A DNA stretch of 62,141 nucleotides from an uncultured Methanosarcinales archaeon (lineage in GTDB: Archaea > Nanobdellota > Nanobdellia > Woesearchaeales > ARS49), in NCBI GenBank assembly GCA_964508495.1, contig CAZDUA010000031.1, positions 1 through 62,141 on the forward strand. Reading direction: 5' to 3'. A model generated the notes under the pieces. That model was not told the DNA's origin and searched no databases. It saw nothing but the letters and a program-made list of their open reading frames with translations. Positions 1 to 18,849 of this stretch are shown here, one piece after another. A program made the position numbers and the translations under genes. Position 1 is the first letter of the stretch. Every line of letters starts with the position of its first letter.

Positions 1-2
1 TA

Positions 3-284
3 TTCTATCAAGCGTAATACTTCTCTCCATTCTTGTTTGCTTATAGTGCCAAACTCGTGTTTTATGTCTCCGTTTAGAATTACGCGTTCTACTGCTACGT
101 GTTCTGTTATCCAGTCTAAGTGTTTGATTATTTTTTTGTACTGCATTCTTGGCACTAATACGCCTTGTTTGCCAAGCGATTCCTCATAACCCAAATGTAA
201 GTCTGAGATGATTATTGCTTTGATATCGGGCAGGTATGTACACAAATCAACTGCGTATACTCCTTCTGCTAGTTTTGTTGGCAT
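3..284 (-). CDS. Metallophosphoesterase (calcineurin-like, ICC/SbcD-related archaeal family), N-terminal part; runs off the window start
   Basis: Not in ORF track. Hand translation from ATG at 284: MPTKLAEGVYAVDLCTYLPDIKAIIISDLHLGYEESLGKQGVLVP...VILNGDIKHEFGTISKQEW, with SDLHLG and NGDxKH metal-binding motifs. Confidence 0.85.
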   Translation of the reverse strand, partial: MPTKLAEGVYAVDLCTYLPDIKAIIISDLHLGYEESLGKQGVLVPRMQYKKIIKHLDWITEHVAVERVILNGDIKHEFGTISKQEWREVLRLIE

Positions 285-320
285 TTAATAAAATAAAGAA
301 AAACAATATTTAATTGTTGC

Positions 321-1541
321 CTAAAAGTGGCTGAAACAGCGCTCTTCTGTGAACACCATTGCTATCTCGCTCTTATTGGCTAGCTCAATGATTGATTGGT
401 CTTCTTTTGAACCGCCTGGTTGGACGACTGCCGTGACGCCTTCTTTTGCAATTGTTTCAACATTGTCTGGCTTTGGCATGAATCCGTCGCTGGCAATGAC
501 TGCTCCTTCTAGGCCGCCTCTTGTTTGTTTGACGAATGCCACTGCTTTCTCCAAATCCCAGGATTGGGCTTGTACGAGCTTATCTGTTGCTTTTTGGTAT
601 GCTTTGTCGATGGCTTGTTCTATTGCGCCAACTCTTTCCTGCTGTCCTGTTCCTATTGCAATTGCTGCGCCGTCTTTTGCAAACACTATTCCGTTGCTTC
701 TTGTGTTCGCGCAGATGTACCATGCGAAGAGCATGTCTTCTGCTTCTTGTGGTGTTGGCATCCTGTAGCTTGTGGCTACAATTTTTTTGTCTTTGTCCAA
801 TGCTATTGCGGGCTTGAACTGGTTTGGTAATCTGAATTTTGTTGTATATGGCTCTGACATGACAAACGTACCGTCTGCAAGGACTCTTAGTTCTGGGTGT
901 GCTTTGTCTTTTTCATCTGAGAAAGCAGGCACTTGTGCTAATAATTCTTTGTCGTATGCTAGAACTCGTACGTCAACGTTTCTGCCATATTTCTTTCCGC
1001 TTTTTAGTATTTCTAATGCGTCTGGCTCTATTTTTGGTGCTAATATGACTTCGAAGAAATCTGTTGTCATTATTCTGTCAGCGAGTTCTTTGTCTACTGG
1101 ACCGTTAAATACCATTGTTCCGCCGAAGTTTGAGCGCGCATCGCACCAGTATGCTCTTTCAAATGCATCTGCGAGCGTTTTTCCTTTTGCTATTCCTGAT
1201 GGGTTTATGTGTTTGTGGAACGTGCAGACTGGCTGTGTGTCTCCTAGTAGTCTGATGATGCGGAGTGCTCTGTCCATGTCTTCAAGGTTTGTTTGTGACA
1301 GGCCTCCTTTGCCCGTTTTTAGTTCGACGAGCTTGCTCATTACTGTTGGAACGCCTTCTATCTCGTAGTGTGCTGCTGGTTGGTGTGGGTTTGTTCCGTA
1401 GCGCAAGTCCTCTCTTTTTTGATAGGTGACGGTTTCAAATCGTGATGTTTCGTTTGGAGTTTTTGGCTTGAATTCAAGCATCATTGTTATCCTGTCTGCG
1501 AATTCGCCGACATTTCTTGTCCTGTACATTTCTTTGCCCAT
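321..1541 (-). CDS. purH: AICAR transformylase (PurH family, AICARFT domain only; no N-terminal IMP cyclohydrolase domain)
   Basis: LRYGTNPHQPAA, KHINPSG, DARSNFGG, EVILAP, SNGIV, GTGQQERV, ASDGF, VVQPGGSKED, ERCFSH motifs. GAGGTGA RBS at 1548-1554. Confidence 0.85.
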   Translation of the reverse strand: MGKEMYRTRNVGEFADRITMMLEFKPKTPNETSRFETVTYQKREDLRYGTNPHQPAAHYEIEGVPTVMSKLVELKTGKGGLSQTNLEDMDRALRIIRLLGDTQPVCTFHKHINPSGIAKGKTLADAFERAYWCDARSNFGGTMVFNGPVDKELADRIMTTDFFEVILAPKIEPDALEILKSGKKYGRNVDVRVLAYDKELLAQVPAFSDEKDKAHPELRVLADGTFVMSEPYTTKFRLPNQFKPAIALDKDKKIVATSYRMPTPQEAEDMLFAWYICANTRSNGIVFAKDGAAIAIGTGQQERVGAIEQAIDKAYQKATDKLVQAQSWDLEKAVAFVKQTRGGLEGAVIASDGFMPKPDNVETIAKEGVTAVVQPGGSKEDQSIIELANKSEIAMVFTEERCFSHF

Positions 1542-1552
1542 AACTATTCACC

Positions 1553-1717
1553 TCACTCGAATTCTATTGTTCCTGGCGGTTTGCTGCTTATATCGTAAAC
1601 TACTCTGTTTATTCCTTTGACTTCGTTTGTTATTGTGCAGTCTCTTCTGGTGAGCCCTGGAAGTAGAGAGAATTCTTGGAATGTTCTTCCTGGCTTTGTT
1701 ATTATTCTGCTCGCCAT
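1553..1717 (-). pseudogene. 54-aa chimeric remnant: IMP dehydrogenase (GuaB) N-terminus fused in frame to GMP synthase (GuaA) C-terminus
   Basis: Hand translation [54 protein letters not shown]. The second half is the hallmark GuaA C-terminal motif (NRVVYDITSKPPxTIEWE). The first half resembles the RTFxEyLLLPGLT start of one IMPDH subfamily. Confidence 0.8.
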
Positions 1718-1782
1718 TTATTTGTAAAGTACCACCCGATTTTGTATTTTTAATCTCAGAAAAAGTACTTTTATATGTTTTT

Positions 1783-2274
1783 CTATTCTGGAGTAGTACT
1801 ACGTGTTATGTTTTTGTCTATTTCAAAGGCGTATGGGTATTCTATGCCAAATGGCAGGTGTAGCATGTACGTGCCTTTGACTTTTAGGTTGACTTGTCCT
1901 TCTTTGATTGCTTTTAGTATGCCCGCACCGAGCTCTATGTAGCCTGCTTGCACTGCGAAGTGTTCTTCTATGTGTTCGCCGGAAAACAGTTTTACTGGAG
2001 GCGTTAGGATTTCTCCTACTGGGATGTTGTTCAAGTATATCACGCCGTGGAATTCTCCAACGTTTACTGTTATTGTGTTTGGATTGTACACTATTATGAT
2101 CATTTCTACTGTTAGCCCTGTCCAACTGAAATGTGATACTCTTGCTTCTTCAAGTTCTATTTGGAGATTTCTGACTGCTGTTAGTTTTTGGTATTGGTAG
2201 ACTGCCAGTCCTAAGAGTATTATGATTAGAATCGATGCTAGTGCTGATAATTGTCCTTTCCTCTTTTTTTCCAC
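1783..2274 (-). CDS. LEA type 2 / WHy domain protein with N-terminal membrane anchor
   Basis: N-terminal TM helix; IIVYNPNTITV...VIYLNNIPVGE beta-rich LEA_2 pattern. Confidence 0.65.
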   Translation of the reverse strand: MEKKRKGQLSALASILIIILLGLAVYQYQKLTAVRNLQIELEEARVSHFSWTGLTVEMIIIVYNPNTITVNVGEFHGVIYLNNIPVGEILTPPVKLFSGEHIEEHFAVQAGYIELGAGILKAIKEGQVNLKVKGTYMLHLPFGIEYPYAFEIDKNITRSTTPE

Positions 2275-2881: not shown

Positions 2882-3994
2882 ATGTATTTGATTCGTGGGT
2901 TGGATGATGGGGAAGTGGCTGGTGTTATCCAGCAGTTGGGTTCCAGTGATGGGCTAGTCCATGCTTTGTGCAAGGTGCGTTTTCCTTGGATATCGCGTGT
3001 TATGCCTGAGAATTTAGTTAGGAGGATGTTGGAAAAGGATTTTAGGAATATTGGTTCTGTTAAGGAGTTTCAGGGAGTGCTTTGCAAGTATGTCAGGTAT
3101 TTGATGAAATCTACTTCAGATGGTCTTTCTTGTTCTGGCTTGGAGAATATAGCTAAGAATGGAGTTGGCAAGATTTTTGTTTCCAATCATCGTGATATTG
3201 TTTTGGATTCTGTTCTTGTCGGGTATGAGTTGTATACTTCTGGTCATGGCTTTACGCGTGCTGGTTTTGGCAGCAATTTGGCGAGTATTCCTGAGGTTTC
3301 CGCTATTTTGCGCTTGTCTGGCGGTTTTATTGTTCCGCGTGGCGTTAAGGGCCGTGCATTGTATAATGCAGTTCATGAAGTTTCTTCTTATATTGATGAT
3401 GTCGTTAAGCAGGGTGGATTGGTTTGGATTGCCCAGAGAGAAGGCCGCGCCAAGGATGGCATAGATGAAACCAATCCTGCTGTGCTTAAGACTTTGCACT
3501 TGTCTTCCAAGGATTCTTTGTCTTTAGGCGAATTTGTTGGTTCAAGGGAGATTATTCCTGTGGCTGTGTCTTACGAGTGGGATCCTTGTGATATGATGAA
3601 GTCCAAAGAAGTGCAGGTTACTAAACAGACTGGCAAGTATACTAAGGTGAAGGGCGAGGATGAGGCTGCCATGCTTGCTGGCGTGCTTGGCAGAAAAGGC
3701 AGGGTTCATGTTGCTTTTGGAAGTCCTTTAAGCGGTGATTTTGCTGGTTACGAAGCCGTTGCCGGCGCGATTGATAAGCAGATTCATGATTTGTATCACG
3801 TGTGGCCTTCAAACGTTGCCGCTGTTTTCATGCTTAGAGGTGAGAGAATTGATGGCTGTGAAGAGCTTGAAAAGCGCATACAGGGCATGCCTGCTGAGTC
3901 CAAGGAGTGTTTGCTGAGGCTTTATGCTAATCCTGTTCAGAGTAAGTTTACCCACCAACAAGAGAAAGTAGTTTCTCAACTTCCGTCCAGTTGA
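2882..3994 (+). CDS. Glycerol-3-phosphate/lysophospholipid acyltransferase (LPLAT superfamily, bacterial type)
   Basis: FVSNHRDIVLDS (catalytic HxxxxD), WIAQREGRAKDG, IIPVAVSYEWDPCD, GRKGRVHVAFG. Confidence 0.8.
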   Translation: MYLIRGLDDGEVAGVIQQLGSSDGLVHALCKVRFPWISRVMPENLVRRMLEKDFRNIGSVKEFQGVLCKYVRYLMKSTSDGLSCSGLENIAKNGVGKIFVSNHRDIVLDSVLVGYELYTSGHGFTRAGFGSNLASIPEVSAILRLSGGFIVPRGVKGRALYNAVHEVSSYIDDVVKQGGLVWIAQREGRAKDGIDETNPAVLKTLHLSSKDSLSLGEFVGSREIIPVAVSYEWDPCDMMKSKEVQVTKQTGKYTKVKGEDEAAMLAGVLGRKGRVHVAFGSPLSGDFAGYEAVAGAIDKQIHDLYHVWPSNVAAVFMLRGERIDGCEELEKRIQGMPAESKECLLRLYANPVQSKFTHQQEKVVSQLPSS

Positions 3995-4532
3995 TTGATT
4001 TCCAGATTGTTTCTACATAGTCTGCTCGTTTCAAGTTGTAATCAATCATGAACGCGTGTTCGAACACGTCTATTACTAGTATTGGCGCGCAGGTTGCTAA
4101 ATGGCCGACGTCGTGTTCGTTTATCCAGCAGTTGAATAGTCTGCCTGTTGATATGTCGTAGTATGTTACTGCCCAGCCTATTCCTCTCATCGTGCAGGTT
4201 GCCTTTAGGTCTTTTTCGTAGTTTTCCCAGCTTCCGAATTGTTCTGTTGCTTTTTTCTTGAATTTGTCGCTTGCTTTTGGGTCTTTTGAGAGTATTCTGA
4301 AGAATACTTCATGCAGTCTCATGCCGTTGAACTCCCATCCAAAGCGTCTTTTTAGTTCTGCAAATTCCGGGTTTGCTTGTTTTCCTTCTTTTAGCATTGC
4401 TGAAACAGTATCAACGAGCTTGTTTGTATTGTTAACATAGCCCTGATAGAGTGTGAAATGATTCTTCATTAACTGGTCTGATAGTCCTTTGATTCCTAGT
4501 AGATGGTCGAAGTTTTTTGGTTCGTATGGCAT
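3948..4532 (-). CDS. sod: Fe/Mn superoxide dismutase family protein
   Basis: Metal ligands in HFTLYQGY, FNGMRLHE and DVFEHAF; GIGWA motif. Confidence 0.85.
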   Translation of the reverse strand: MPYEPKNFDHLLGIKGLSDQLMKNHFTLYQGYVNNTNKLVDTVSAMLKEGKQANPEFAELKRRFGWEFNGMRLHEVFFRILSKDPKASDKFKKKATEQFGSWENYEKDLKATCTMRGIGWAVTYYDISTGRLFNCWINEHDVGHLATCAPILVIDVFEHAFMIDYNLKRADYVETIWKSINWTEVEKLLSLVGG

Positions 4533-4566
4533 TTTATCACCTTAGAATACGGGATTGTTTGTTCTT

Positions 4567-4899
4567 TTAATATATTTCTATTGCTACGGTCTTTCCTTTG
4601 GTTGAGCAGAGCATTACTGATTGTCCTTTTTCTAGGTTTCTTGCGGTGTGTGGTGTTTCTTTTTCCATGTCTATTCTGTCGCCGGGTTTTAGCACGAAGC
4701 TTCTTCCTTCTGCACAGAATTCAACTTTGCCGGTAACAAGTATTCTTGTTTCGTCATATTTGTGCTGGTGTACGTTCATGAACTCGTTTTTTTCCATGAC
4801 TTCCAGGTGCGGTTTCATCCCTTCTTTTACCATCAAAGCTCTAAGTTCATCTTCTGTTGGCACTCTTGGCTTGTTCCAGGGTAAGTAACGGACGTTCAT
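4567..4899 (-). CDS. Cupin domain protein
   Basis: HQHKYDE...GKVEF...LKPGDRIDMEKETPHTARN cupin motifs 1 and 2. Confidence 0.8.
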   Translation of the reverse strand: MNVRYLPWNKPRVPTEDELRALMVKEGMKPHLEVMEKNEFMNVHQHKYDETRILVTGKVEFCAEGRSFVLKPGDRIDMEKETPHTARNLEKGQSVMLCSTKGKTVAIEIY

Positions 4900-4937
4900 T
4901 AGCCATTGGCTATTTCACTAGCTTATTAAAATTTTTG

Positions 4938-5894
4938 TTAAAACAGCCGTTTCTTGGCAAAAGTGCCAGGTATTAATCTGTAAGCTAGTCTTCCATCTGC
5001 GTAAAGCATTGGAATTCCTATTAGCGCCGTACAAGAAAGACAGGCTAACTTTGGCACATCTTTTGTCGTTCTTAGTGAAACATCGTGCTGCAGTTTTTCA
5101 AACTCTGGAGGGTAGAATATTCGGTTCAGGTAGCATCTTATCAGATCTCCCTTCCCATCTTTTTGGTATTTTATGACACTGCTGTTGCACTTTGTGCAGG
5201 ATATATCTAGAAGGTGTGCTTCCCCTCCTCTTGCAGTTCTGTATTTATCGTTTTTTAGCTTAAATTCTTTTGGGTCCATTTTCTCATCTCCGTTTTTTGT
5301 TGAAACTGGTTCAACTTTTTCATCTATGCAGGTAGAAAGTAAGAAATGCAGTCTGTGTACATTTTTTCTTACCTCTCCTTCATTTTGAAAGAACAAATTA
5401 ATTGAAGGCTGATATTCGCCTTTCTGAACTTTGTTCAGCTCTTGAACTGCAGCCGCATACCTTTTGCCATCGCCGTCTCTATCGTCTGTGCTAAGTCTCG
5501 ATTTCAGTGTTTGCAAATCAGGTGGCAGGACATAAACAGAATACTTGCGTACCTCTGGAAGTGATTCATTTAAGCAATCAATCCTGTCTATTGGCCAGTC
5601 GAGCAGTGGCTTCCGGTAACTTGAAAGAATTCGGTGTATTTCCTCTCTGGTCGGTCCATAAAAATTACCGTGAACTTCATTTGGACACACGATGACGCCG
5701 CTATTTGCGAGTTCAGAGAAACATTCTCTATCAACGTGTATTTTATCAGTTTCATTTTCTCTTAATTCTCTGGTCGTATATGGTCGCGGGTAATCATAAC
5801 TTAACGGGAATAGAGTGCGCAGTTCTCTGATAAGGGTTGTTTTTCCTGTTCCAGATGGTCCCAGTAGCAGGACTAGTGTTTTGTGTGTTTTCAT
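4938..5894 (-). CDS. Guanylate kinase-like P-loop domain fused to a C-terminal 4-Cys (putative zinc-binding) domain
   Basis: GPSGTGKTT P-loop, YTTRELRENE, HGNFYG, PPDLQTLKSRL. C-terminal SCTKC...YQKDG...RCYLNRI...ACLSC. Confidence 0.7.
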   Translation of the reverse strand: MKTHKTLVLLLGPSGTGKTTLIRELRTLFPLSYDYPRPYTTRELRENETDKIHVDRECFSELANSGVIVCPNEVHGNFYGPTREEIHRILSSYRKPLLDWPIDRIDCLNESLPEVRKYSVYVLPPDLQTLKSRLSTDDRDGDGKRYAAAVQELNKVQKGEYQPSINLFFQNEGEVRKNVHRLHFLLSTCIDEKVEPVSTKNGDEKMDPKEFKLKNDKYRTARGGEAHLLDISCTKCNSSVIKYQKDGKGDLIRCYLNRIFYPPEFEKLQHDVSLRTTKDVPKLACLSCTALIGIPMLYADGRLAYRLIPGTFAKKRLF

Positions 5895-6724
5895 TTTCTT
5901 TTTACTTTTGAGATGGAATAATGCAATCCTCGAATTGATTGTTCAACTTTGTCTCTCCAGTCTTTGTCCGTCGAATTATATGGGTAAAGTATTGCTCTTG
6001 AAGAATTTACAATCACGCCGCTGTCTTTTTGGTTGAAAAGGCATCGTATTTTTGTCAAATCGCCTCCTTGTGCGCCAACACCCGCATACAATATGGGCAT
6101 ATCGCTAGGTATTCTTTCCCTTATCCTCTCGAGCGAGGCATGTTCGGATAGGACTGGAATCATGTTTCGATTTTTGTTCCAATCACTTACTACCCGGTCC
6201 AGAATGTATGACCAAAGTGGCTCTTCTCGTTTTTTTGTTTCAGATTTTACCGGAATATCTTGTATTATGTTTGCTCCGGGATTGCTGGTTCTTACTAGCA
6301 CGGCAATGCCTCTGTCAGAGTAATTTGAAAACGCGTGGAAGACTTCTTGGCCCATGTAAGGATTTATGACGATTCCATCAGCATTGCAATTTTGGAAAAT
6401 GTTGCGCAAATATGCATGCATGGTATTCTCAATGTCGCCAATCTTGCAGTCAACTATTGCTGGCGCATCAGGAGCTGACTTGTGAATTGTACTGATTGCA
6501 TCTTTTAGCAGTTTTGTTCCATCGTAAAGATCAAAAAAAGCTTTTTGCAGCTTATATGCGGATGCGTATTTTGATGTTATTTCAATTATTTCAGTTAAAA
6601 ACCTTGAAACCGCTTCGAATGGAGGGAGATTTTTGTATTCATTCGGAATTTTACTTAAATCCGGATCTAAACCTACGCAGATGCTGGAATTAGGCTCATT
6701 TAAGAGTTTTAAGCAGTCTCTCAT
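5891..6724 (-). CDS. pyrF: Orotidine-5'-phosphate decarboxylase (type 2 subfamily)
   Basis: ICVGLDPD, AYKLQKAFF, DCKIGDIENT (DxKxxD), RTSNPGA, GVGAQGG, VNSSRAILY. Confidence 0.85.
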   Translation of the reverse strand: MRDCLKLLNEPNSSICVGLDPDLSKIPNEYKNLPPFEAVSRFLTEIIEITSKYASAYKLQKAFFDLYDGTKLLKDAISTIHKSAPDAPAIVDCKIGDIENTMHAYLRNIFQNCNADGIVINPYMGQEVFHAFSNYSDRGIAVLVRTSNPGANIIQDIPVKSETKKREEPLWSYILDRVVSDWNKNRNMIPVLSEHASLERIRERIPSDMPILYAGVGAQGGDLTKIRCLFNQKDSGVIVNSSRAILYPYNSTDKDWRDKVEQSIRGLHYSISKVKRK

Positions 6725-7521
6725 TTCAAACCCTCATAATCGTGGCCTAAAACGAGCTTTTTAGCTTCAAGATGCCTGGCCGTCCGTTCGGTTGGCGGTA
6801 CTGCTATGGCTTCGTTTTTAACGTCAAAACCGTTTCTAGTTAATGCTTCCAACTTTTTCGGATTATTTGTGCCGAGTAGTAGCTTGCTCTTCACGTCTAA
6901 AAACTTCAGAATTGCAACAGCGCCATCATATGTTCTGCAATCAATGTCATTGGCAGTGTTGTTTTTTTCTAACAGAGTGAAAGCCTCAACAGTGTTTACA
7001 CCTATACGTTCCTGTAAATAGAGTGTGGCGAGTTTGAAGTCTGTGCCTTTTCCCCTTCCATCTTGGTTTGGAATGTATATTATCAGTCCTTGCTCTTTTT
7101 CAGCAAGTCTTTTCATGGCCAAGTCTAATTGTTCACGACATTCGCAGGTTTTATCATGAAACAATTGCCCCGTCGTACATCCAGAATCTATTCTAAGAAA
7201 GACGCTTTTTTCTTGTTTGAATGCGGGACGCATCAGTGTGCTGTCAAGGTCCGATTTTGCTATTGCGTAATACGTACCCCATTCATCGTTAACTTTGAAT
7301 ACCATCTGGTAGAATTTGCCGTATGGTGTGTCAAGAGGTCCACAGCCTTTTTTGGTTACATCATATGAATCGTTTCCAATAAGTATTGCTCTTGTACACT
7401 GTTTTTTAGAATTTTCAGCTTCTGATATTATGTCAAGTAGCTCGGTCTGATTTATTTTATACTTTTGAGAAAGTTCCTTAGTAAAATCAAAATAGTCGAA
7501 TTCTCCGTTTTGAGTTGCCAT
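6721..7521 (-). CDS. GTP cyclohydrolase II (RibA)-like protein, divergent subfamily
   Basis: LRIDSGCTTGQLFHDKTCEC (three Zn Cys), QDGRG, NTVEA, DCRTY, TNNPKKL, KKLVLGH. Confidence 0.8.
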   Translation of the reverse strand: MATQNGEFDYFDFTKELSQKYKINQTELLDIISEAENSKKQCTRAILIGNDSYDVTKKGCGPLDTPYGKFYQMVFKVNDEWGTYYAIAKSDLDSTLMRPAFKQEKSVFLRIDSGCTTGQLFHDKTCECREQLDLAMKRLAEKEQGLIIYIPNQDGRGKGTDFKLATLYLQERIGVNTVEAFTLLEKNNTANDIDCRTYDGAVAILKFLDVKSKLLLGTNNPKKLEALTRNGFDVKNEAIAVPPTERTARHLEAKKLVLGHDYEGLK

Positions 7522-7522
7522 T

Positions 7523-7954
7523 TTAAATGTTGAACGTTTCCCTCATCAAATCACCGATTATCGTGTACTTCTGTACCTGCAAAACGCCTGGCAATTGATG
7601 CATTTCTTCCGCAAAATCCTCTATTTCCTTGAGGTCTTTTCCTATAAATTCTGCCAGAAAGTCGTATCCTGAGTTGATTTTGTGCAGGTTGTTTATTGCC
7701 ATGTGCTGCTCCAAGTATTCTCGCACTCTGTCTCTTCCTGTTGGTGTTGTTTTGATTGCAAAGCATGCTCTTGTGTATCCGAGTTTTGCGAAATCAAGCA
7801 GTGCTGTGCTTTTGTGGATGATGTTGCCGTGATACCGTTTGACTTTGTCGTGTACTGTTGATGCTGGCATGTTGAGCTCTCTTGCGAGAGCAAGTAGTGA
7901 GGTTCTTGCGTTCTTTCTGAGCGCAGAGAGCAGTCGAAATTCGTTTTCATCCAC
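7523..7954 (-). CDS. Lrp/AsnC family transcriptional regulator (true start probably GTG at 7954, not 8023)
   Basis: LLSALRKNARTSLLALARELNMPASTVHDKV HTH; ALLDFAKLGY; SGYDFLAE. GGGGTGA RBS just upstream of GTG 7954. Confidence 0.8.
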   Translation of the reverse strand: MDENEFRLLSALRKNARTSLLALARELNMPASTVHDKVKRYHGNIIHKSTALLDFAKLGYTRACFAIKTTPTGRDRVREYLEQHMAINNLHKINSGYDFLAEFIGKDLKEIEDFAEEMHQLPGVLQVQKYTIIGDLMRETFNI

Positions 7955-7959
7955 ATGAT

Positions 7960-8196
7960 TCACCCCATCTGTTCGAGGGCTGCCTTTTTGGCTTCGCCTT
8001 CGATTTTTGTTTTGCTTCCGCACCGTCCGCAGAGTACGAACAGCTCATTTGTTAGTGGAATTATTGGTATGAAGTAGAGCGTGAACCACTCTGTTAGTTT
8101 GACGAGGCCGTGCATCGTTTTTCGCTTGCAGTTCTTGCACGGCTTGTTGGCTTCACCAAGCACTTTCGGTTTGCTCTTGTAGCCGAAGAGTATCAT
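7960..8196 (-). CDS. Zinc-ribbon domain protein
   Basis: CKNC...WFTLYFIPIIP...CGRC. Confidence 0.75.
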   Translation of the reverse strand: MILFGYKSKPKVLGEANKPCKNCKRKTMHGLVKLTEWFTLYFIPIIPLTNELFVLCGRCGSKTKIEGEAKKAALEQMG

Positions 8197-8378
8197 GACC
8201 TGCCTCCGAATATCATCACGAGAATTCCTACAATAGCAAGCGCTCCTGCCACGTATGACTGCGATTCTCCGAGTAGGTTTAGTAGTTTGAACTGGAGGCC
8301 GAAGAATGGAAGTACAAATCCTCCTGCTCCAAAGAAGAACATCATTGCGCCGAGTCCTCTTGCTGACATTTTACGCAC
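8193..8378 (-). CDS. Small membrane protein (2 TM)
   Basis: Two hydrophobic segments; overlaps both neighbours in operon fashion; GAGGTG RBS. Confidence 0.55.
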   Translation of the reverse strand: MRKMSARGLGAMMFFFGAGGFVLPFFGLQFKLLNLLGESQSYVAGALAIVGILVMIFGGRS

Positions 8379-8622
8379 CTCCTATGAATAAGTACATTAT
8401 CGAAATGTAGAGGAAGTACAATCCACCTGCAACGCATGCTGCTCCGATTAATCTTGCCATGGCCGGATGATGTTGTGTGCCGTCGTTTTTCTCCAGTTTG
8501 CCTCTCACTAATGCTATTATTCCGCCTATTGCGAATAGTAATCCGATTATTATTCCGCCAACAGCTACTACTCCTGGTGGCAGCGTTCTTAGCAACGCTT
8601 TGAGTCCCACATATTGTCCCAT
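8371..8622 (-). CDS. Small membrane protein (2 TM)
   Basis: Two hydrophobic segments; first gene of the minus-strand run. Confidence 0.5.
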   Translation of the reverse strand: MGQYVGLKALLRTLPPGVVAVGGIIIGLLFAIGGIIALVRGKLEKNDGTQHHPAMARLIGAACVAGGLYFLYISIMYLFIGGA

Positions 8623-8775
8623 TTTCTTTCCTCCAAAGCTTCGTAAAGCTTCCTTGACTATTGTAAGTTATACGAAGAAAGCGTAAGATATATACTTTGT
8701 TCAATTATAATTATTACTAATAACTATATAATTACAAAGGAAAGAATTATATACTTGGAAGGTTTCTACTATTGT

Positions 8776-9732
8776 ATGAAGCGTAAAATAAACAGGGTTG
8801 GAACGTCAACTTTGACTGTTTCACTGCCGAGCAAGTGGGCCCAGAAATATGCCTTGAAGCCGGGACAAGAAGTTGAAGTTTTTGAAGAGGGCAGAATTGT
8901 GCACATTTCCGCAGGCGCAAATGTCAGGAAGGGCAATAAGACGATCATCAATATTGATGAATTCAATGCTCTTATGGTTAACAGGCTTCTTAACGAACTT
9001 TACAATTCAGGTGTTGACGAGATCATTATTAACTTCTCAAAGCCCACGGTTCCTAATTACAAAACTGGAGAATCTGTTGAAGTAGAGAAGTACATTAATA
9101 GGCTTCTTCCCAGATTTATAGGTCTTGAAATAGTATCTCAAACGCCTGGCAAGATTATATTGCAAAACCTGCTTCCGGTAGAAAAAACAGAAAAGCTGGA
9201 TGTAATTCAAAAGCGTACTTATTTTCTTATCAAGGAATTCTTAAGCGAATTTATCAAGAACTTGAACAATTTCAGTAGTTTTTATCCAAAAGTCTATGAT
9301 TACCATGATGCCGTGGATAGGTTCATTAATTATTATCTGAGGTTAATCTCTGCATCAGATTTAGGCGAGCATCAAAAGGCAAGAGCGGCTACGTTTTATG
9401 AGAGAATAAAGACAGTATTGGATAAAGTTAGGCACACTAGCGAAAGGCTTTCAGAAATGAAGATGATTACTCCAAAGATAAAGTCTTATGTTGCTGAAAT
9501 CTTCAATTACTATATGTCCCAGTTTGACTTTATTTTCAAATCAGGCATAACTACAAAGGAAGTCGATGGTATCGTAAAAAAAAGATATGAACTCGTCAAT
9601 AAAATTAATCAAGAAAGGTTTAATGAGAGAGAAGCAAGAGTGATTTGGGAGTGCAGGAGCATGGTTGATACAATTGTTGAATTTCTTGATGAGTACATTC
9701 AATTGAATTCTGAGAGCTTTAGAGCTGCTTGA
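8776..9732 (+). CDS. AbrB/MazE-like DNA-binding domain + PhoU-like helical domain regulator (archaeal phosphate-uptake regulator family)
   Basis: MKRKINRVGTSTLTVSLPSKWAQKYALKPGQEV N-terminus; GLEIVSQT; helical C-terminus. ATG 8776 is a likelier start than 8755. Confidence 0.75.
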   Translation: MKRKINRVGTSTLTVSLPSKWAQKYALKPGQEVEVFEEGRIVHISAGANVRKGNKTIINIDEFNALMVNRLLNELYNSGVDEIIINFSKPTVPNYKTGESVEVEKYINRLLPRFIGLEIVSQTPGKIILQNLLPVEKTEKLDVIQKRTYFLIKEFLSEFIKNLNNFSSFYPKVYDYHDAVDRFINYYLRLISASDLGEHQKARAATFYERIKTVLDKVRHTSERLSEMKMITPKIKSYVAEIFNYYMSQFDFIFKSGITTKEVDGIVKKRYELVNKINQERFNEREARVIWECRSMVDTIVEFLDEYIQLNSESFRAA

Positions 9733-10873
9733 GTTTTTTTAAGGTTTCTTGCAGGACTTTTTTAGCGCTAATCTGACAAGGATATTCATCTCTCAAAGTA
9801 TGGCCATTTTTTAGAAAAGTTCTCAGGGAAGTAATATAGTTGATTCTTCGCGATTCATGGTCAAGAAGCCCAGTTGGCTGGCAAAGATAAGCTGCTGCTG
9901 CGAGTAATGCTTGGAACTCTCTGGCTGATTCTGGCTGGCTTCTTAAGTAATATCTTAATTTTCCTTTCTCACTTACGTACTCCTCTTTTTCCACCTGCAT
10001 GCATGCTTTTTCAAGTTCTGAAAACTTTTCAAGAAGTTCTTCTTGATATTCAATTGCTGGCTTTTTCTCATTCAGCGATTTCACTCTCTCACCGATTTTT
10101 TCTCGTCTAACTGCTTTATCTGGTGAGTTGTCAATCAGATGCTGACCCGTTAGTTGCTCATAGAGTACCAATCCAACTGACCATGCGTCATAATCATCCG
10201 CCCATTCCTTTGCTCCGAGATAGATTTCCGGAGGTCCATATGTTAGTGAGCCCCACATGCCGTCAAATTCTTGTGTTGCAAGACCAAAATCCACAAGGTA
10301 CGGTTTTGAATTTTCGCTTAAAACAATGTTCTCTGGGCGTATATCTCGGTGAAATATGGGGTTTGGAATTGTGATTCCAGAATACGCCCATTTCATCTGC
10401 AAAATTACTAAGGCGTCAAATAAGCCCTTTGCGATAGCTGGAAAATCTTTAATTTGGTGACTTAAACCCAATTTTCCATCAATTACAGTACGTAGCGATG
10501 GAACTCCAAAATGATGGCTTCTGGGGAGCAGATAAGACCATTTTGGAAGGCGCGTGAATAAAATTCCTGTATAATCTCCTTTAATTGGTACCACGTCTTC
10601 TATTTTCGCTATGTTATCATGGTCATCAAGCCAGGCGAGTATTTTTGCCTCATTTTTTGTACGCTCTACAGGGTCGAGTTTTGAATGTTCATACCCTGAA
10701 AGAGGTACATCCGGACCTAGTAAATCGTGAGGCAAGTTGACTTTCAAAAGATTTACAAGATTCACCCTTGCACGTTTTACTACGTACATCTCTGACAAGT
10801 TTCCAGAGGGAAGCTCACCTAAAACTTCCATCCCATCATGTATTACGTCCCCTGCTTGCAATATCTTACCCAT
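9719..10873 (-). CDS. Ser/Thr protein kinase (Hanks type)
   Basis: HRDIRPENIV catalytic loop, DFGL, YGPPE, DAWSVGLVLYE. Confidence 0.8.
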   Translation of the reverse strand: MGKILQAGDVIHDGMEVLGELPSGNLSEMYVVKRARVNLVNLLKVNLPHDLLGPDVPLSGYEHSKLDPVERTKNEAKILAWLDDHDNIAKIEDVVPIKGDYTGILFTRLPKWSYLLPRSHHFGVPSLRTVIDGKLGLSHQIKDFPAIAKGLFDALVILQMKWAYSGITIPNPIFHRDIRPENIVLSENSKPYLVDFGLATQEFDGMWGSLTYGPPEIYLGAKEWADDYDAWSVGLVLYEQLTGQHLIDNSPDKAVRREKIGERVKSLNEKKPAIEYQEELLEKFSELEKACMQVEKEEYVSEKGKLRYYLRSQPESAREFQALLAAAAYLCQPTGLLDHESRRINYITSLRTFLKNGHTLRDEYPCQISAKKVLQETLKKLKQL

Positions 10874-12614
10874 TTTTGCCTATATCGGTTTTTCTCAGTT
10901 CATAAGAATTTTGAAGCGTTTGAATCGTTTGTGCAACGCGATAATTGTACGGCGATTCAATATCTCGTGCATCCTTGCCGCCAAAGAATGAATTATCAAA
11001 AAAACAATTTGACATGATGAATTCGATAATCGATTGGGCGCCGTCGATAAGTGCGGCATCCTTCAAAGTGTTAAAAAAATTGTGCTGATAGAACAAATTG
11101 AGCTTATTTTTGGTTTCAGTATCGATCTTCAATTGTTCTTTCTCAAAATATTCCGCACATTCTTTTGGATTGAAATCAATTGCTTTTACAACGTTAGCAA
11201 GCGGATTTTTAATTACGCCCTCAATTCCTTCTCGTACATTGTTAAGAAGTTTTTGTTGCTGGTCAATCATGAATGTCATATACTGATCAGGTTCTTTCAC
11301 TTTATCAATCTCTTTTGATGAGAAGAATTTGTTACCAGTAAGCATTTCATAAAGTATGACTCCTAAAGACCATAAATTATCACGCGGCACAACGTCATAT
11401 GCTGTTTTGTTGCGCGATAGTTTGAGCATGCGAGGTGATGCATAATCGATAGGCCAGTGTTTCCAAATTTCTTTTGTGTCGTATATTGCATCGTTAAAAT
11501 CCGTTAGTTTTACACCGTCTTTGTCAATTCCAACATTGTGGGGTGCGAGATCGTAATGCATTATTCCACGCTCATGGCAAGCTGCCAGCGCAGTCAGCAT
11601 TTGTTCAAAGTAAAGCATTGCATCAGAAAATTTAATCCGTGATCCGCTATTCTCAAGTTTTTCTTTCAATGTTTGTTCGAAGGGTTCCATTGGCAATACG
11701 AATTTGCCTTCCATCTCAAATGGATCATAATAGGTAACTATGTTTGGGTGTCTAAGTTCTCGCAGTTTTTCGATATTTCTGACAACCGCGTCTATTGGAA
11801 CGTCCTGATTAACTATTTTAACTGCAACTTCTCCTGAATACTTGTTTTGCGCTAGATATACATCGCTGACGCGTCCACTGCCGAGCTTTCTAAGAGGATT
11901 GTAATTTGAGGGCAATTCTAATTTTGCAAGCTCGATTATTTCCTCAAGCGGCATTCTTTCTTCTTTTGCCTCCTCTTTTTTCATGTAGTTGATTATCTTT
12001 CTCAGTTTACTATTTGTTAGAATCAGATGCACCGCTTTTGCAAAGTTTGGATCAGTTTGGTATGCTGTTGTTCCGCAGAATATGGCTGTTTTCTTGATAA
12101 AGTCCAGTTTTTCAGGCAGTTTATCTTCTTGCTCGATGAATCTGGTGTAGGGCAGTTCTCTGCCTTCTGCGAAAATGAAGTCAATTGCGCTGAAAAACTC
12201 GCTTGAGACCGGTTCAGGTAATTTTTCCAAAGGTTCTTTTATTTCAGTTAATATTTCTACAAGGGTGTCAAGACAAGCATTCGATTTTTGTGCAATTTCT
12301 TCTTTTTCTTTGTCTACTTTTTCTCCATCATATTCCAGAAATTGAAGGGTATCGCTTACTGACACATATCTCGCAGCATGCATTGAAATTGTGTCCATGG
12401 CTTTTTGTTTCAGTGAAGAGCCTACATATGACTTGACAAATCTGAACGTTTTTCTATATGCCTGCTGCTCTTCTGATGGAAGGTCTGGCCTATCTTCATC
12501 TATCCACTCATGTTCTACATTACTGAAGAATTCATCCAGTCCTTTGCGGATGGCTTTCATTGCGCCTTCTATATTCTTCCTGCGTATGTCTTCCTCGCTG
12601 TCAAAGTCACCCAT
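10866..12614 (-). CDS. Ser/Thr protein kinase-like protein with N-terminal helical domain; degenerate motifs
   Basis: LGSGRVSDVY, VAVK, HPNIVTYYD, HYDLAPHNV, DFN, YASPR, LWSLGVILYE. Confidence 0.75.
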   Translation of the reverse strand: MGDFDSEEDIRRKNIEGAMKAIRKGLDEFFSNVEHEWIDEDRPDLPSEEQQAYRKTFRFVKSYVGSSLKQKAMDTISMHAARYVSVSDTLQFLEYDGEKVDKEKEEIAQKSNACLDTLVEILTEIKEPLEKLPEPVSSEFFSAIDFIFAEGRELPYTRFIEQEDKLPEKLDFIKKTAIFCGTTAYQTDPNFAKAVHLILTNSKLRKIINYMKKEEAKEERMPLEEIIELAKLELPSNYNPLRKLGSGRVSDVYLAQNKYSGEVAVKIVNQDVPIDAVVRNIEKLRELRHPNIVTYYDPFEMEGKFVLPMEPFEQTLKEKLENSGSRIKFSDAMLYFEQMLTALAACHERGIMHYDLAPHNVGIDKDGVKLTDFNDAIYDTKEIWKHWPIDYASPRMLKLSRNKTAYDVVPRDNLWSLGVILYEMLTGNKFFSSKEIDKVKEPDQYMTFMIDQQQKLLNNVREGIEGVIKNPLANVVKAIDFNPKECAEYFEKEQLKIDTETKNKLNLFYQHNFFNTLKDAALIDGAQSIIEFIMSNCFFDNSFFGGKDARDIESPYNYRVAQTIQTLQNSYELRKTDIGKNG

Positions 12615-14777: not shown

Positions 14778-17700
14778 TTATGCCAGCTCTTTTAATCTTT
14801 TCTGTAAGAACTTGGCTATTTCATCATCCCACGAGCGGGGTACTGTTTTGCTGAAGAGTTCTTTCATCCATTTTAGTGTTTCTGGCCTGAATCCTTCTTT
14901 GTCTCCTGCTATCATTTTGTAGATGTCATAGCGTATTTGCGCGTCTAACTTGGCTCTTTTGGCTGCCTTGTTGAATTGTTCGAACAATTTTTGTTTTTCC
15001 TCTTCGACTTTTTCTTCTTCTTTTGCTGTTTCTTCGTTCCAGAAGTCTTGGTATGAGAAGTCTCCTGTTTTCAGGTCTTCTAAAACTGTAAATAGGAATT
15101 TTTTGAGTTCGTCCGGCCAGTTTGCTTCTATTTCTTTTTGGTATTTCTTGCATCCTTCGATGAACCGGGGGTCTATGTTGGTTCTTTCGCCGTCTATTAT
15201 TCTGACTAGTTCTGCTTTTGCGAATTTTGGCGTGTGTTTGACATTCCATGCTTCTCTTTTGAGTATTTCTTTGAAATCGTTGCGTTCTTCTTTTGCGCCT
15301 TCTATGTATTTTGTTGGGCTGATGTGTTTTGTTTCTTTTCCTGATATTTTTGCGAGTATTTGCTCATGCATTCTGCGCAGGAATTCGTATTTGTCTTCTA
15401 TTCTTAGCACGTCCATGTATCCTTGCAGTGCCAGGTTGAGTCCAAATGGTGTTGGTATTGTTGTTTCTATCTCTGTTATTTTTATTGTGCCATCTTCTAT
15501 GCCCTGTAGCACTTTTTTGGTGTTTTCAATGTCCATTAGGTCTTCTAGGCATTCTCTTTTTGCTTCGTTTAGTATTGCGAAGTTGGGGTCTAGTTGTTTT
15601 AACGCGGACATTAGTATCATTGAGCTGACTTGTTGTCTTCCGACTCGTTTCTGTCTGCCCATGTAGTTGCGTAGTATCATTAATGAGCGTGTTGCGCAAT
15701 GTCTGAATCTTCTTTTGAAAACTTCGCTTTTTTCGATTGCGTTGTTCATTATCATGTTTATTTTGTCTGCTTTGAGTAGTTTTATGGCTTTGACCGGGTT
15801 GAGTTTTTTGTTTCCGTTGATGTAGAATCCGTTGTCGCTTATTCCAAGCTCTACATCTTTATGTTCTGTGCGTGATAGTGCGAATGCTACTGCTCTGCTC
15901 AGGCAATCGTTTACGCGTCTGCCGAGAAGTGTGTGGAAGATTATTTTTTGGTCTCTTTCATCAGCATAGTACTCAACCAGTATTGTTTTGTCGTTTGGTA
16001 TTTTTTTGCAGTAGTCGTATTGTTCTTTGAAATATTCATAAATTGCGTTTGCTGCTTTATCGTCAACGTAGAGGTGTTCGTTGATGAATTTGAGTATGAT
16101 CGCCTTATTTTCTCCCGCGCTGAGTCTGTCCAGCATCAGTCTTCTGAATCTTCCTATCGTGTTTGCTAAGTCGAAGCTTAGTGGGAGCATTTCTGATGCC
16201 CATCTTGGCACTGTTGGGGGCCTGTTGACTGATGTTCCTACTTGTGCTACCATGCCTCTGGTAAACTTGAACATGTAAGTTTCTCCGCCAAGAACAAAGA
16301 CATCTCCTGGTTTTAGTCTTTCAACAAATCCTTCGTCAAGCATTCCTACTGTTTCTGTTCCTATTTTGACTGTGACGAATGATTCGTCTGGGATTGTTCC
16401 TATGTTTGTCATGTATATGACTCTTGTCATTTTGCCTCTTTTGCCTATTTTTCCGTCTGCTCTCCAGATTTTTGCGTAGATGTTTCTGTCTTCTAGATCA
16501 ACATATTCGCCTGCTAAGTAGCTCAATATCTGGTTGAAGTCATTCAGTTTCAAGTCTTTGTAACAGTAGCTTTTTTTGACTGTTTTGTAGAGTTCTTTTT
16601 CTTCCCAGACTTGTTGTAGTGCCATTCCGATTAGTTGTTGTGCTAGAACGTCGAGTGCGTTTGTTGGGATGTGTACTTTGTCTATTTTTTTTTCTACCGC
16701 GCTTTTTAGCAAGACTGAACATTCAACTAAGTCATCTCTGTCCATGACGATTATTCTTGCTTTTACTGTTTCGTGTAGTTTGTGCCCGCTTCTGCCTGCT
16801 CTTTGCAGGAATCTTGCGACTGATTTTGGCGAGCCAAGGCAGATTACAAGGTCTATGTAGCCGATATCAATTCCTAGTTCAAGTGATGTTGAACAAACGA
16901 CTGCTTTCAACTCGCCGTTTCGTAGTTTTTCTTCGATGTCTAGGCGCATTCTTTTGCTCATGCTGCCGTGGTGTGCGCCTATGTTTCCGATGTATTTCTT
17001 GGGAAATCTTGTTTTCAAATGGTCTACTACTCTTTCTGTTGCTGCTCGCGTGTTTGTGAAGACTAATGTTGTTTTGTGTGATTGTATTAATTCGTCAATG
17101 AGCTCGTACATCGCGTGGTGTGCTGTGCCGTGGGGAGTGTCAATCAGGTTTTCTACTGGCGACATAACTTGTAAGTCGAGGTTTTTCAAGAATTGAATGT
17201 CAATTACAGTGCAAGGTCTTCCTACTCCTACAAGGTATTTGCCGATTTCTTCTATTGGTGCGACTGTTGCGCTTAGTCCTACTCTGCACATGTGAGTGGA
17301 CAGGTGTTGTAAGCATTCAAGTGATAGTGAAAGATGTGTTCCTCGTTTGTTTTCAGCCAGTGCGTGAATCTCGTCTACTATGCACCAATCAACGTTTTTC
17401 AAATGTTCTCTGAACTTTACTGAAGCTAGCATTATTGCAAGACTTTCTGGTGTTGTTATCAGGATGTGTGGCGGTTTTTTGAGCATTTTGCTCTTTTCAT
17501 TTGCAGTTGTATCGCCTGTTCTTACTCCTACTCGTATGCCTAATGATTTTCCAGCTAGGTTTTCTATTTGTTCTAGTGGTTCTTTCAAGTTTTTAGAAAT
17601 GTCATTGGAAAGTGCTTTTAGTGGTGAAATGTATATCGCGTAGACTTTGTCTTGCAGTATTCCTTTTTCTGCGGAATCGACAAGCTCATTCAATATTGAT

Positions 17701-17909
17701 AGGAAGCCGGTTAGCGTTTTTGTTGCGCCGGTTGGTGCGGATACAAGGATGTTGTTTCTGGAGTGTATCTCAAGCACTCCGTAGAGCTGTGGTAAGGAGA
17801 AACTAGTAAATCTGGAGAAGAACCATTTCTTTATTGTTGAGTTTAGTATGCCTTCTACTTCTTCTTTGGTGTTGGGTTTCTCTTTCCGTTTTATTAGATT
17901 ATCTTCCAT
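14778..17909 (-). CDS. lhr: Lhr-like ATP-dependent SF2 helicase (Lhr-core plus C-terminal extension); probable start ATG 17909
   Basis: APTGATKT, YISPLKAL, TTPESL, DEIH, LSAT, FTNTR, HHGS, SLELGIDIG, QRAGRSGH, NIGTIPD. TATA at 17961-17968 argues against the 18086 start. Confidence 0.9.
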   Translation of the reverse strand: MEDNLIKRKEKPNTKEEVEGILNSTIKKWFFSRFTSFSLPQLYGVLEIHSRNNILVSAPTGATKTLTGFLSILNELVDSAEKGILQDKVYAIYISPLKALSNDISKNLKEPLEQIENLAGKSLGIRVGVRTGDTTANEKSKMLKKPPHILITTPESLAIMLASVKFREHLKNVDWCIVDEIHALAENKRGTHLSLSLECLQHLSTHMCRVGLSATVAPIEEIGKYLVGVGRPCTVIDIQFLKNLDLQVMSPVENLIDTPHGTAHHAMYELIDELIQSHKTTLVFTNTRAATERVVDHLKTRFPKKYIGNIGAHHGSMSKRMRLDIEEKLRNGELKAVVCSTSLELGIDIGYIDLVICLGSPKSVARFLQRAGRSGHKLHETVKARIIVMDRDDLVECSVLLKSAVEKKIDKVHIPTNALDVLAQQLIGMALQQVWEEKELYKTVKKSYCYKDLKLNDFNQILSYLAGEYVDLEDRNIYAKIWRADGKIGKRGKMTRVIYMTNIGTIPDESFVTVKIGTETVGMLDEGFVERLKPGDVFVLGGETYMFKFTRGMVAQVGTSVNRPPTVPRWASEMLPLSFDLANTIGRFRRLMLDRLSAGENKAIILKFINEHLYVDDKAANAIYEYFKEQYDYCKKIPNDKTILVEYYADERDQKIIFHTLLGRRVNDCLSRAVAFALSRTEHKDVELGISDNGFYINGNKKLNPVKAIKLLKADKINMIMNNAIEKSEVFKRRFRHCATRSLMILRNYMGRQKRVGRQQVSSMILMSALKQLDPNFAILNEAKRECLEDLMDIENTKKVLQGIEDGTIKITEIETTIPTPFGLNLALQGYMDVLRIEDKYEFLRRMHEQILAKISGKETKHISPTKYIEGAKEERNDFKEILKREAWNVKHTPKFAKAELVRIIDGERTNIDPRFIEGCKKYQKEIEANWPDELKKFLFTVLEDLKTGDFSYQDFWNEETAKEEEKVEEEKQKLFEQFNKAAKRAKLDAQIRYDIYKMIAGDKEGFRPETLKWMKELFSKTVPRSWDDEIAKFLQKRLKELA

Positions 17910-18030
17910 ATTGAAAATAATTAATAGTGCTTTATCCTGTCCATTAATGCTTATCGTCGATATAAAAAGGTTACGAATAGTTGTCCAGTGAGCCAAAAAG
18001 CTTTTAATTAACCGCTGTAAAGTCTCGAAA

Positions 18031-18849
18031 ATGAGTGAAGATTTACCAGAAAGAGCGCAGACTGCGCTAGAAGCTATTAGAGACATTAAGGGTCGTAGCC
18101 CTATTCATTCTTCTAGGGATTTAGGAGAGGTTTGCAATCAGCTGACAGACATGTTTCATGCTGCCGCTCAAGCCAGGGAATTGTATCCGTATAGGATGCA
18201 GGCGACTTGTGTTTTGAGAACTTTGGAAAGAATGAGGGAAACGCTGAAGCAGTGCTCTCCTGATTATTTGAAAGGTGAGCAGGAAGAAGTTATTCGTTCA
18301 GAGGGTCAGAATGGAAGGGTTATTTCTCAGGAGCATTTTGTTGGTTGCGGCTTGCAAACAAGGTTTTATGGGGTTGAGTTCAGCTTTGGATTGTTTGATG
18401 ACAGGGAGCGTGCTCTTAAGTTGCTGAATCGTCAGATTGTTTATGCTGAGCATAATGTTGCTTCATTGAATAAAGTGAAGAATCAAGCCGAGCAGAACAT
18501 TAAGGTTGATGCCCACAATGGCCCGACTGGCGGGAAATACTTCCTGTTTGATGGTGCAGTCATAGTTCCAATTAATTTGGTTAAGGGCGGTCATGTTCTT
18601 TATCGTGCTTCTTTGTACAAAGTAGATCAGTGTACGCATGTGAAATTACTTCCTGAGCCTTCCACAATTTTCGAGTCTTTCAAGGACGCGGCTGAAGAGA
18701 TTGACAGGAATGCAGGTGTTGTTGTAACTGTAAAAGGTTCTGAGAAATATCCGATTAGCGAAACTGCTTTGCATGTTGTTCTGGACAAGTATCAGAAGCT
18801 GGCAGCTAATTCAGGAATTCCTGTTTGCACTGAGTGTGTTGGGTTTTAA
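18031..18849 (+). CDS. Hypothetical protein
   Basis: 272-aa ORF with + strand codon pattern; AAGCTTTTAA promoter about 23 nt upstream; no recognised motif. Confidence 0.6.
   Translation: MSEDLPERAQTALEAIRDIKGRSPIHSSRDLGEVCNQLTDMFHAAAQARELYPYRMQATCVLRTLERMRETLKQCSPDYLKGEQEEVIRSEGQNGRVISQEHFVGCGLQTRFYGVEFSFGLFDDRERALKLLNRQIVYAEHNVASLNKVKNQAEQNIKVDAHNGPTGGKYFLFDGAVIVPINLVKGGHVLYRASLYKVDQCTHVKLLPEPSTIFESFKDAAEEIDRNAGVVVTVKGSEKYPISETALHVVLDKYQKLAANSGIPVCTECVGF

Follow-up and report, generated by a model that had tools for sequence, protein, structure and literature searches.

Reductive genome evolution in Rickettsia, Buchnera and Mycobacterium leprae is characterized by a deletional bias, by pseudogene remnants and by fused leftover ORFs. 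Among the DPANN archaea, whose genomes are small, the capacity for purine synthesis is patchy and mostly missing; whether the group is still losing it or has long been in this state is a matter of debate. For example, DPANN lineages without the purine pathway have been described and inferred to depend on external IMP (PMC7414124). In archaeal nomenclature, a purH that comprises the AICAR formyltransferase only is termed 'PurH1'; histidine synthesis likewise yields AICAR as a by-product, and wherever it operates the final steps of purine synthesis are to be expected (PMC3261824). In the Keio scar, the start codon, the last codons and the RBS of the following gene are preserved, giving an in-frame peptide of 34 aa; scar peptides of 41-60 residues relieved polar effects better than this (PMC8547470). 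In Haloferax and E. coli, coupling between neighboring genes is nearly lost once the distance from the stop codon to the following start reaches about 20 nt (PMC10666635).

The DNA analyzed in this work is a single stretch of 62,141 nucleotides, hereafter the window, with a G+C content of 41.8% and genes for ribosomal protein L15e and a family-B DNA polymerase. Among the L15e homologues, all those bearing a name at phylum level are labeled Candidatus Woesearchaeota or Nanoarchaeia, which makes the organism a DPANN archaeon. It contains a short ORF in front of purH that we regard, with a probability of about 85%, as a genuine deletion scar that would be recent on the evolutionary scale.

A fused ORF in front of purH

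The ORF comprises 54 codons and resides on the minus strand at 1553..1717 (ATG 1717-1715, TGA 1555-1553), exactly as claimed in the earlier note on this DNA. Judged from its matches in Pfam, NCBIfam and PDB and from the comparison with a related contig, it is an in-frame join of the start of guaB to the end of guaA (guaB'::'guaA). Its start codon directly abuts an upstream stop codon (TAA ATG). At its other end the TGA overlaps GAGGTGA (1548..1554, minus strand), a Shine-Dalgarno-like site of purH that was read from the sequence and recurs as an identical string in the relative; the described overlap of stop codon and RBS (TGA 1555-1553, GAGGTGA 1554-1548) is therefore present as stated. A 6-nt spacer separates GAGGTGA from the purH ATG (1541), and the gap between the stop codon of the fusion ORF and this start codon amounts to 11 nt. 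On the upstream side, 65 nt lie between the fusion ORF and the stop codon of a gene for a LEA_2-like membrane protein (1783..2274, minus strand; weak Pfam match to LEA_2). These 65 nt contain the TATA-like box CATATAAAAG (1768..1777, minus strand), which is situated in a 47-nt spacer following the LEA_2-like gene. Archaeal promoter and start-site assignments were made here by eye.

The relative referred to throughout is L003 (Ga0247727_10000031), a 290-kb metagenome contig found in a PurH scan of metagenome contigs; its PurH is 88% identical to that of the window, and the string ACATATAAAAG at the TATA-like box is unchanged in it (363-373). With its help both halves of the ORF can be assigned. 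The C-terminal half is the C-terminus of GMP synthase, as the earlier note had proposed: residues 28-53 correspond to profile positions 67-92 of 92 in Pfam GMP_synt_C (E 1.2e-11, 44.9 bits at a cut-off of 27 bits), that is, the product carries a fragment of this domain consisting of these positions only. NCBIfam guaA models (E 4e-11) and solved GMP synthases, for example 5tw7 (E 4e-8), match the same half. The underlying DNA, the last 26 guaA codons and the stop (1553..1633, minus strand), is 91% identical to L003 9910-9990, and codons 29-54 agree with the last 26 residues of L003 GuaA at 25 of 26 positions.

For the N-terminal half, profile and structure matches are marginal, although all of those in NCBIfam and PDB are locked in position to the very start of IMPDH proteins. 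The NCBIfam IMP dehydrogenase model PRK07107 matches ORF residues 5-31 with its positions 4-30 (E 0.02), and ORF residues 7-31 align with residues 7-31 or 5-30 of the IMPDH-family structures 8ebc and 1ak5 (E 0.035-0.15). Pfam IMPDH did not match the 54-aa product even at E 10. Decisive is the comparison with the intact GuaB of L003 (489 aa). Its residues 1-29 are identical to ORF codons 1-29 at 24 of 29 positions, the ungapped BLOSUM62 score being 126 as compared with a maximum of 40 in 100,000 shuffles, and tblastn with GuaB residues 1-31 as the query retrieves the guaB remnant with an E value of 5.7e-11. At the DNA level, this remnant (codons 1-29; 1631..1717, minus strand) is 83% identical to L003 guaB 2920-3006. 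The proposed identity of the N-terminal half as an IMP dehydrogenase start is thus corroborated.

It might be argued that there is no fusion at all and that the entire ORF is a 5'-truncated guaA remnant with a diverged first half, given that BLASTP and MAFFT alignments to GMP synthase C-termini extend over all 54 residues, with a gap of two residues and an overall identity of 50-59%. In local Smith-Waterman alignments (BLOSUM62), however, residues 1-28 reach a score of 25-27 with the matching GuaA segments of L003 and of a more distant contig, L011, as opposed to 122 with the L003 GuaB start. In addition, DNA homology to L003 guaA ends at the ATA codon, and guaB homology spans 1721..1621. These scores together with the extents of the BLASTN matches refute the diverged-tail reading, and we assign it a negligible probability.

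With only 29 guaB codons left, the catalytic barrel of IMPDH (~330 residues, including the active-site loop) and the CBS pair are absent. Likewise, Pfam and NCBIfam detected neither a glutamine amidotransferase nor an ATP pyrophosphatase domain in the 54-aa product, whereas the GuaA proteins of L003 and L011 have both. Lacking any catalytic domain of either enzyme, the ORF is a functional member of neither the GuaB (Pfam PF00478, NCBIfam PRK07107) nor the GuaA family (Pfam PF00117 and PF00958, NCBIfam TIGR00884), and since every catalytic part of both is missing the peptide most probably has no activity of its own.

Operon structure in relatives and anatomy of the loss

In L003, Pfam searches identify a purine operon composed of purM (407-1510), a purC-purE fusion (1516-2919), guaB (2920-4389; IMPDH E 5.7e-81 plus CBS), purA (4394-5806), purB (5811-7253), a gene for an AIRC-like protein of 390 aa (7250-8422), guaA (8419-9990) and purH (10001-11221). 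The genes are tightly packed, with overlaps of 4 nt or gaps of 0-10 nt. The operon is flanked by the same LEA_2-like and metallophosphoesterase genes as the window locus, where the former serves as the upstream synteny anchor and the latter, of which the start is present (1..284, minus strand, cut by the window end) within a BLASTN block to L003, as the downstream one. Metallophos family matches also occur in the contigs L006, L008, L010 and L011. Three BLASTN blocks connect the two loci: window 2141..1748 with L003 1..394 (91%), window 1721..1621 with L003 2916..3016 (82%) and, as one continuous stretch, window 1634..1 with L003 9909..11541 (87%). The blocks are collinear; flanking synteny is kept on both sides and the intervening genes are missing from the window. 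The halves of the fusion ORF are accordingly orthologous to the 5' and 3' ends of two separate L003 genes in the same order and orientation. The guaB-guaA-purH operon that the earlier note had proposed to look for in close relatives is recovered here insofar as L003 holds all three genes, but guaB and guaA are not neighbors in it.

More distant contigs bear on the direction of change. L011, which stems from the same metagenome as L003 and has a PurH of 51-53% identity, contains guaB-purA-purB-AIRC-like-guaA-MGS-purH with an intact guaA. As it also exhibits the guaB...guaA...purH order, the long operon is ancestral and the short state of the window derived. L008 and L009 (82%) have purE, purC, guaB, purA, a pyrB-pyrI fusion and purH, and L010 (59%) has purB and purH only; the operon in front of purH is plastic among these relatives. 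The scanned GTDB species genomes provided PurH relatives at only ~40% identity. Several features of these operons are worth recording in their own right. In L008 a fused pyrB-pyrI gene for aspartate carbamoyltransferase (8480-9988) takes the place of the purB, AIRC-like and guaA genes of L003. A separate MGS gene (7286-8038; IMP cyclohydrolase, PurH2) occurs in L011 but in neither L003 nor the window. The ~390-aa protein encoded between purB and guaA is conserved (L003 7250-8422; L011 4537-5697), and its match to AIRC is partial only (E 1e-11, profile positions 76-138).

The variable operon content, with pyrB-pyrI replacing three genes in L008 and only purB-purH in L010, could be taken to mean that the short state is ancestral and that L003 gained its genes by insertion. 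On the other hand, the ORF consists of two ends of conserved enzymes that are present at full length in L003, L008 and L011, and no insertion into an already existing 54-codon ORF could give rise to full-length guaB and guaA genes that are orthologous to those of the relatives. We consider this reversed polarity as good as impossible.

Taking the deletion in the window lineage as the preferred reading, the junction can be placed almost to the base. L003 guaB reads GAC TGC ACC ATA GCA GAC GTA and L003 guaA reads GCA ACA TGA ATA ACA AAC GAA at the corresponding positions, and the window has GAC TGC ACA ATA ACA AAC GAA, in agreement with the junction quoted earlier (TGC ACA ATA ACA AAC GAA). The crossover lies in ATA, or in AATA if ancestral guaB had ACA (1631..1634, minus strand), and the sequence common to both sides thus amounts to 3-4 nt in the three-way DNA comparison, which bears out the short microhomology suggested before. 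It sits in a 14-nt patch in which the guaB and guaA sides are alike at 10 of 14 positions. In L003 the two ATA codons (3004-3006 and 9910-9912) are 6906 nt apart, corresponding to exactly 2302 codons.

Because purA, purB and the AIRC-like gene lie between guaB and guaA in L003, the main gap comprises ~6.9 kb and five genes. A second gap adjoins it on the upstream side. The string GTG GTA CTT TAC AAA TAA (1718..1735, minus strand), which aligns to L003 405-418 and 2908-2922, consists of the remains of the purM start and of the purC-E stop and abuts the ATG of the fusion ORF; the purM start remnant, GTG GTA CTT TAC, differs from GTG TTA TTT AC in L003 by a 1-nt indel, among other changes. Here ~2.5 kb with purM and purC-E (L003 407-2919) are absent from the window, the breakpoints being placed only to within a few bases. 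That the small GTG...TAA frame (1735-1718) might be translated is speculation. Within the 62-kb window no other guaB, guaA, purM, purC, purE, purA or purB was found, so that the search for further guaA or guaB copies turned up none on this stretch.

These findings modify the earlier account of the loss. A guaB start is indeed fused to a guaA end, but more than the guaB-guaA pair was removed, namely ~6.9 kb with five genes plus ~2.5 kb in the second gap. The IMP-to-GMP branch has gone at this locus as proposed and, with purA and purB in the gap, the IMP-to-AMP branch as well. A TATA-like box is present at 1777-1768, close to the 1769-1776 originally given, and both a promoter-like element and the reading frame are retained. 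Since the second gap removed purM and purC-E, however, the box would be that of the operon, upstream of purM, and not guaB's own. The claim of one deletion goes beyond the data: only the end state is visible, from which one step and several steps for the 6.9 kb cannot be told apart.

The most likely course of events can nevertheless be outlined. The ancestor would have possessed a tight operon like that of L003, in the order TATA box-purM-purC-E-guaB-purA-purB-AIRC-like-guaA-purH. As the comparison shows, ~6.9 kb were lost in the window lineage between an ATA near the guaB start and an ATA 26 codons before the guaA end, most likely through illegitimate recombination or replication slippage at the 3-4 nt of microhomology, and the second gap took purM and purC-E. 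Left over are the promoter of the operon, short traces of purM and purC-E, 29 guaB codons joined in frame to 26 guaA codons, and an intact purH. As presumably the last gene of a single transcription unit, purH would depend on the promoter upstream of purM, and the surviving pieces would be just those that its expression needs: the sole visible promoter, the TAA ATG start and the guaA tail with the RBS. Deletions that removed the promoter or the guaA tail would silence purH and hence be lost, and those sparing them could persist.

The guaA gene of L003 deserves a comment of its own. It contains a single in-frame TGA (9907-9909, just 5' of the equivalent of window position 1633) that results from a CGA-to-TGA change at the conserved Arg of RI(I/T)NEV, where L011 has CGA, and that cuts off the last 26 GuaA residues. 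This nonsense codon directly adjoins the ATA at which the deletion junction of the window lies. TGA is a normal stop in L003, where it ends five of the eight operon genes. By these codon comparisons guaA seems to be decaying independently in the window and L003 lineages.

Further nucleotide-related genes adjoin the scar, all on the minus strand (2280-2801, 4938-5894, 5891-6724 and 6721-7521). The cluster includes an inosine/xanthosine triphosphatase-type NTPase, OMP decarboxylase, GTP cyclohydrolase II and a 318-aa protein with a guanylate kinase domain as its N-terminal half and an unassigned C-terminal half. Keeping a guanylate kinase would be consistent with the import of GMP or guanosine once guaA and guaB had been lost. 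The remainder of the window encodes three proteins with eukaryote-type Ser/Thr kinase domains (10866-12614, minus; 36748-38442, minus; 44568-47015, plus; Pfam Pkinase E 1e-17 to 1e-35), and L008 too has such a protein near its operon. Two large ORFs on the minus strand (29407-35130 and 14778-18086) encode 1907 aa, beginning with a signal-peptide-like sequence, and 1102 aa, respectively.

Authenticity and age of the junction and the possible role of the scar

An incorrect join of the guaB start to the guaA end during assembly or amplification, with the full operon really present, has to be weighed because the junction is seen on one contig and related lineages seem to co-occur. Searched against 5.8 billion proteins, the scar ORF matched only itself and C-terminal fragments of GMP synthases, without a second copy, and looking for exact copies of the proteins encoded by the mini-ORF, the LEA_2-like gene and the NTPase gene led to no other contigs. 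Two Logan assemblies, L006 (SRR9952630) and L007 (SRR9952632), have a purH identical to that of the window, and positions 1-34 of each correspond to window ~1575-1542. Both begin at the same base 34 nt upstream of purH, short of the junction, within 32 nt over which the window and L003 do not differ. The shared start most likely goes back to a branch that co-occurring relatives produced in the assembly graph, and it is uninformative on the junction itself; it hints that both lineages are present together in those samples.

An assembler can bridge two sites only if they have a k-mer in common. The longest exact match between the breakpoint regions is 10-11 bases, with 3-4 at the junction itself, which is much shorter than the word size of any assembler; with no common exact repeat longer than 11 nt a collapse is very unlikely. 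Moreover, two separate gaps lie side by side, each keeping gene ends, and the window flanks are collinear with L003 on both sides. The remnants also show the window lineage's own divergence from L003: nucleotide identity is 83-91% for the remnants and 86-91% for neighboring genes, with 17% of bases differing in the guaB remnant, 9% in the guaA remnant and 9-14% in the flanking genes. Having diverged to a similar degree as their flanks, the remnants belong to the window genome and are not stray L003 reads. Assembly collapse, which the earlier note had named as the alternative, consequently retains only a few chances in a hundred.

With the junction accepted as a genuine deletion scar, its age can be approached through the substitutions in its vicinity. 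The purH gene (321..1541, minus strand) is intact and encodes a PurH1 of 406 aa with the AICAR formyltransferase domain only (Pfam AICARFT_IMPCHas, E 2.4e-57). Between window and L003 its dS is 0.63 and its dN/dS 0.105; dS of the LEA_2-like gene is 0.40. Using L008 as the outgroup, 13 lineage-specific purH changes fall to the window and 17 to L003, which indicates no rate acceleration and no relaxed constraint on the window purH. The 55 remnant codons differ from L003 by 14 synonymous and 8 non-synonymous changes, where neutrality predicts 78% non-synonymous ones (P = 3.3e-5). Under the simplest reading of these counts the remnant codons would have belonged to functional genes during most of the period after the lineages split. 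As the differences are mostly synonymous, the deletion is probably recent. It is a possibility that purH has been kept alone to handle AICAR from histidine synthesis.

The same bias could be read differently, namely as a sign that the scar is now a working part, either a selected leader or coupling ORF for purH or a functional peptide. The ORF is intact, starts right after a stop codon and ends on the purH RBS. Its stop codon, 11 nt before the purH start, falls within the coupling distance of a few to ~20 nt, and its 54 codons lie within the range of 41-60 residues reported to relieve polar effects of E. coli scars (PMC8547470). Ribosomes on the mini-ORF would finish 11 nt before the purH ATG, where the guaA tail ends, and so would arrive at the purH start, which may promote initiation; that the ORF carries ribosomes to purH is plausible from this arrangement. 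Nevertheless, a recent deletion explains the synonymous bias equally well, and the same bias is seen in the guaA tail, which lies behind a premature stop in L003. The frame argues little, too. A ribosome entering the guaA tail in frame 0 stops 11 nt, in frame 2 6 nt and in frame 1 88 nt before the purH ATG; with two of three frames ending within 11 nt of the purH start and thus serving equally, the in-frame state is weak evidence for selection. Furthermore, the strong GAGGTGA of purH might allow independent initiation without any coupling. The ORF is carried by one contig only and is not conserved as such: the only 54-aa match is the window's own, and L003, L008, L010 and L011 have full genes before purH. 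Folding of the leader RNA revealed no significant or sequestering structure (z = -0.85), and scans of the window detected no Rfam family, hence no ZTP or purine riboswitch, and no tRNA. On balance, we consider it rather unlikely that the scar has become a working part kept by selection, as opposed to a neutral leftover that is intact because of its youth.

A wider reading joins three elements: selection that filters which losses a compact archaeal operon can sustain, with the two adjacent scars as its visible outcome instead of passive debris; the ORF as a required leader of purH; and a PurH1 that alone reclaims AICAR. Taken together these are doubtful, at a level similar to that of the selected leader itself. 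Under such a filter the survivors would be those that keep the promoter, a start set against the upstream stop, and the last codons with the RBS of the next gene. If this held, nature would repeatedly make 'non-polar' scars like those designed by geneticists, and PurH1 would reclaim AICAR, for example from histidine synthesis.

Comparison with known systems

What the locus offers is two related Woesearchaeota-like lineages, one with the eight-gene purine operon and the other with purH alone behind a fused remnant. They provide a dated and mechanistically readable example of gene loss in a DPANN group, with a short microhomology at the junction and with expression signals kept, and a genome pair suited to comparing how far each depends on purines from outside. 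From the nonsense codon in L003 guaA it would seem that decay of the GMP branch is not confined to a single lineage.

Both halves of the ORF are orthologous to established enzymes, to the first 29 residues of GuaB and the last 26 of GuaA, from which it differs in that the catalytic domains of both are missing. The resemblance to termination-reinitiation coupling (PMC6728339, PMC10666635) consists in the tight junctions of the L003 operon and, in the window, in TAA ATG and a stop 11 nt before purH. Classical coupling involves overlaps of 4 or 1 nt, however, and the 11-nt gap in the window with its strong RBS may act by fresh initiation. As in the Keio scar (PMC8547470), the 5' gene contributes its start codon and the 3' gene its last codons and stop to one continuous frame, so that ribosomes would still terminate beside the downstream RBS. 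In contrast to it, the scar in the window is natural, affects five genes instead of one and comprises 54 residues, and any dependence of purH on it would be an analogy.

The locus resembles reductive evolution in that biosynthetic genes were deleted between very short matches, with small remnants of the genes at either end left behind in a genome that is otherwise collinear with a less reduced relative. Unlike in the bacterial cases, the host is a DPANN (Woesearchaeota-like) archaeon and the remnant is still an intact in-frame ORF. A further difference is that the presumed ancestral operon survives in L003 at a synonymous divergence of ~0.4-0.6, which allows the event to be mapped to the base. 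The scar is thus a well-resolved instance of a known process rather than a new kind of element or mechanism.
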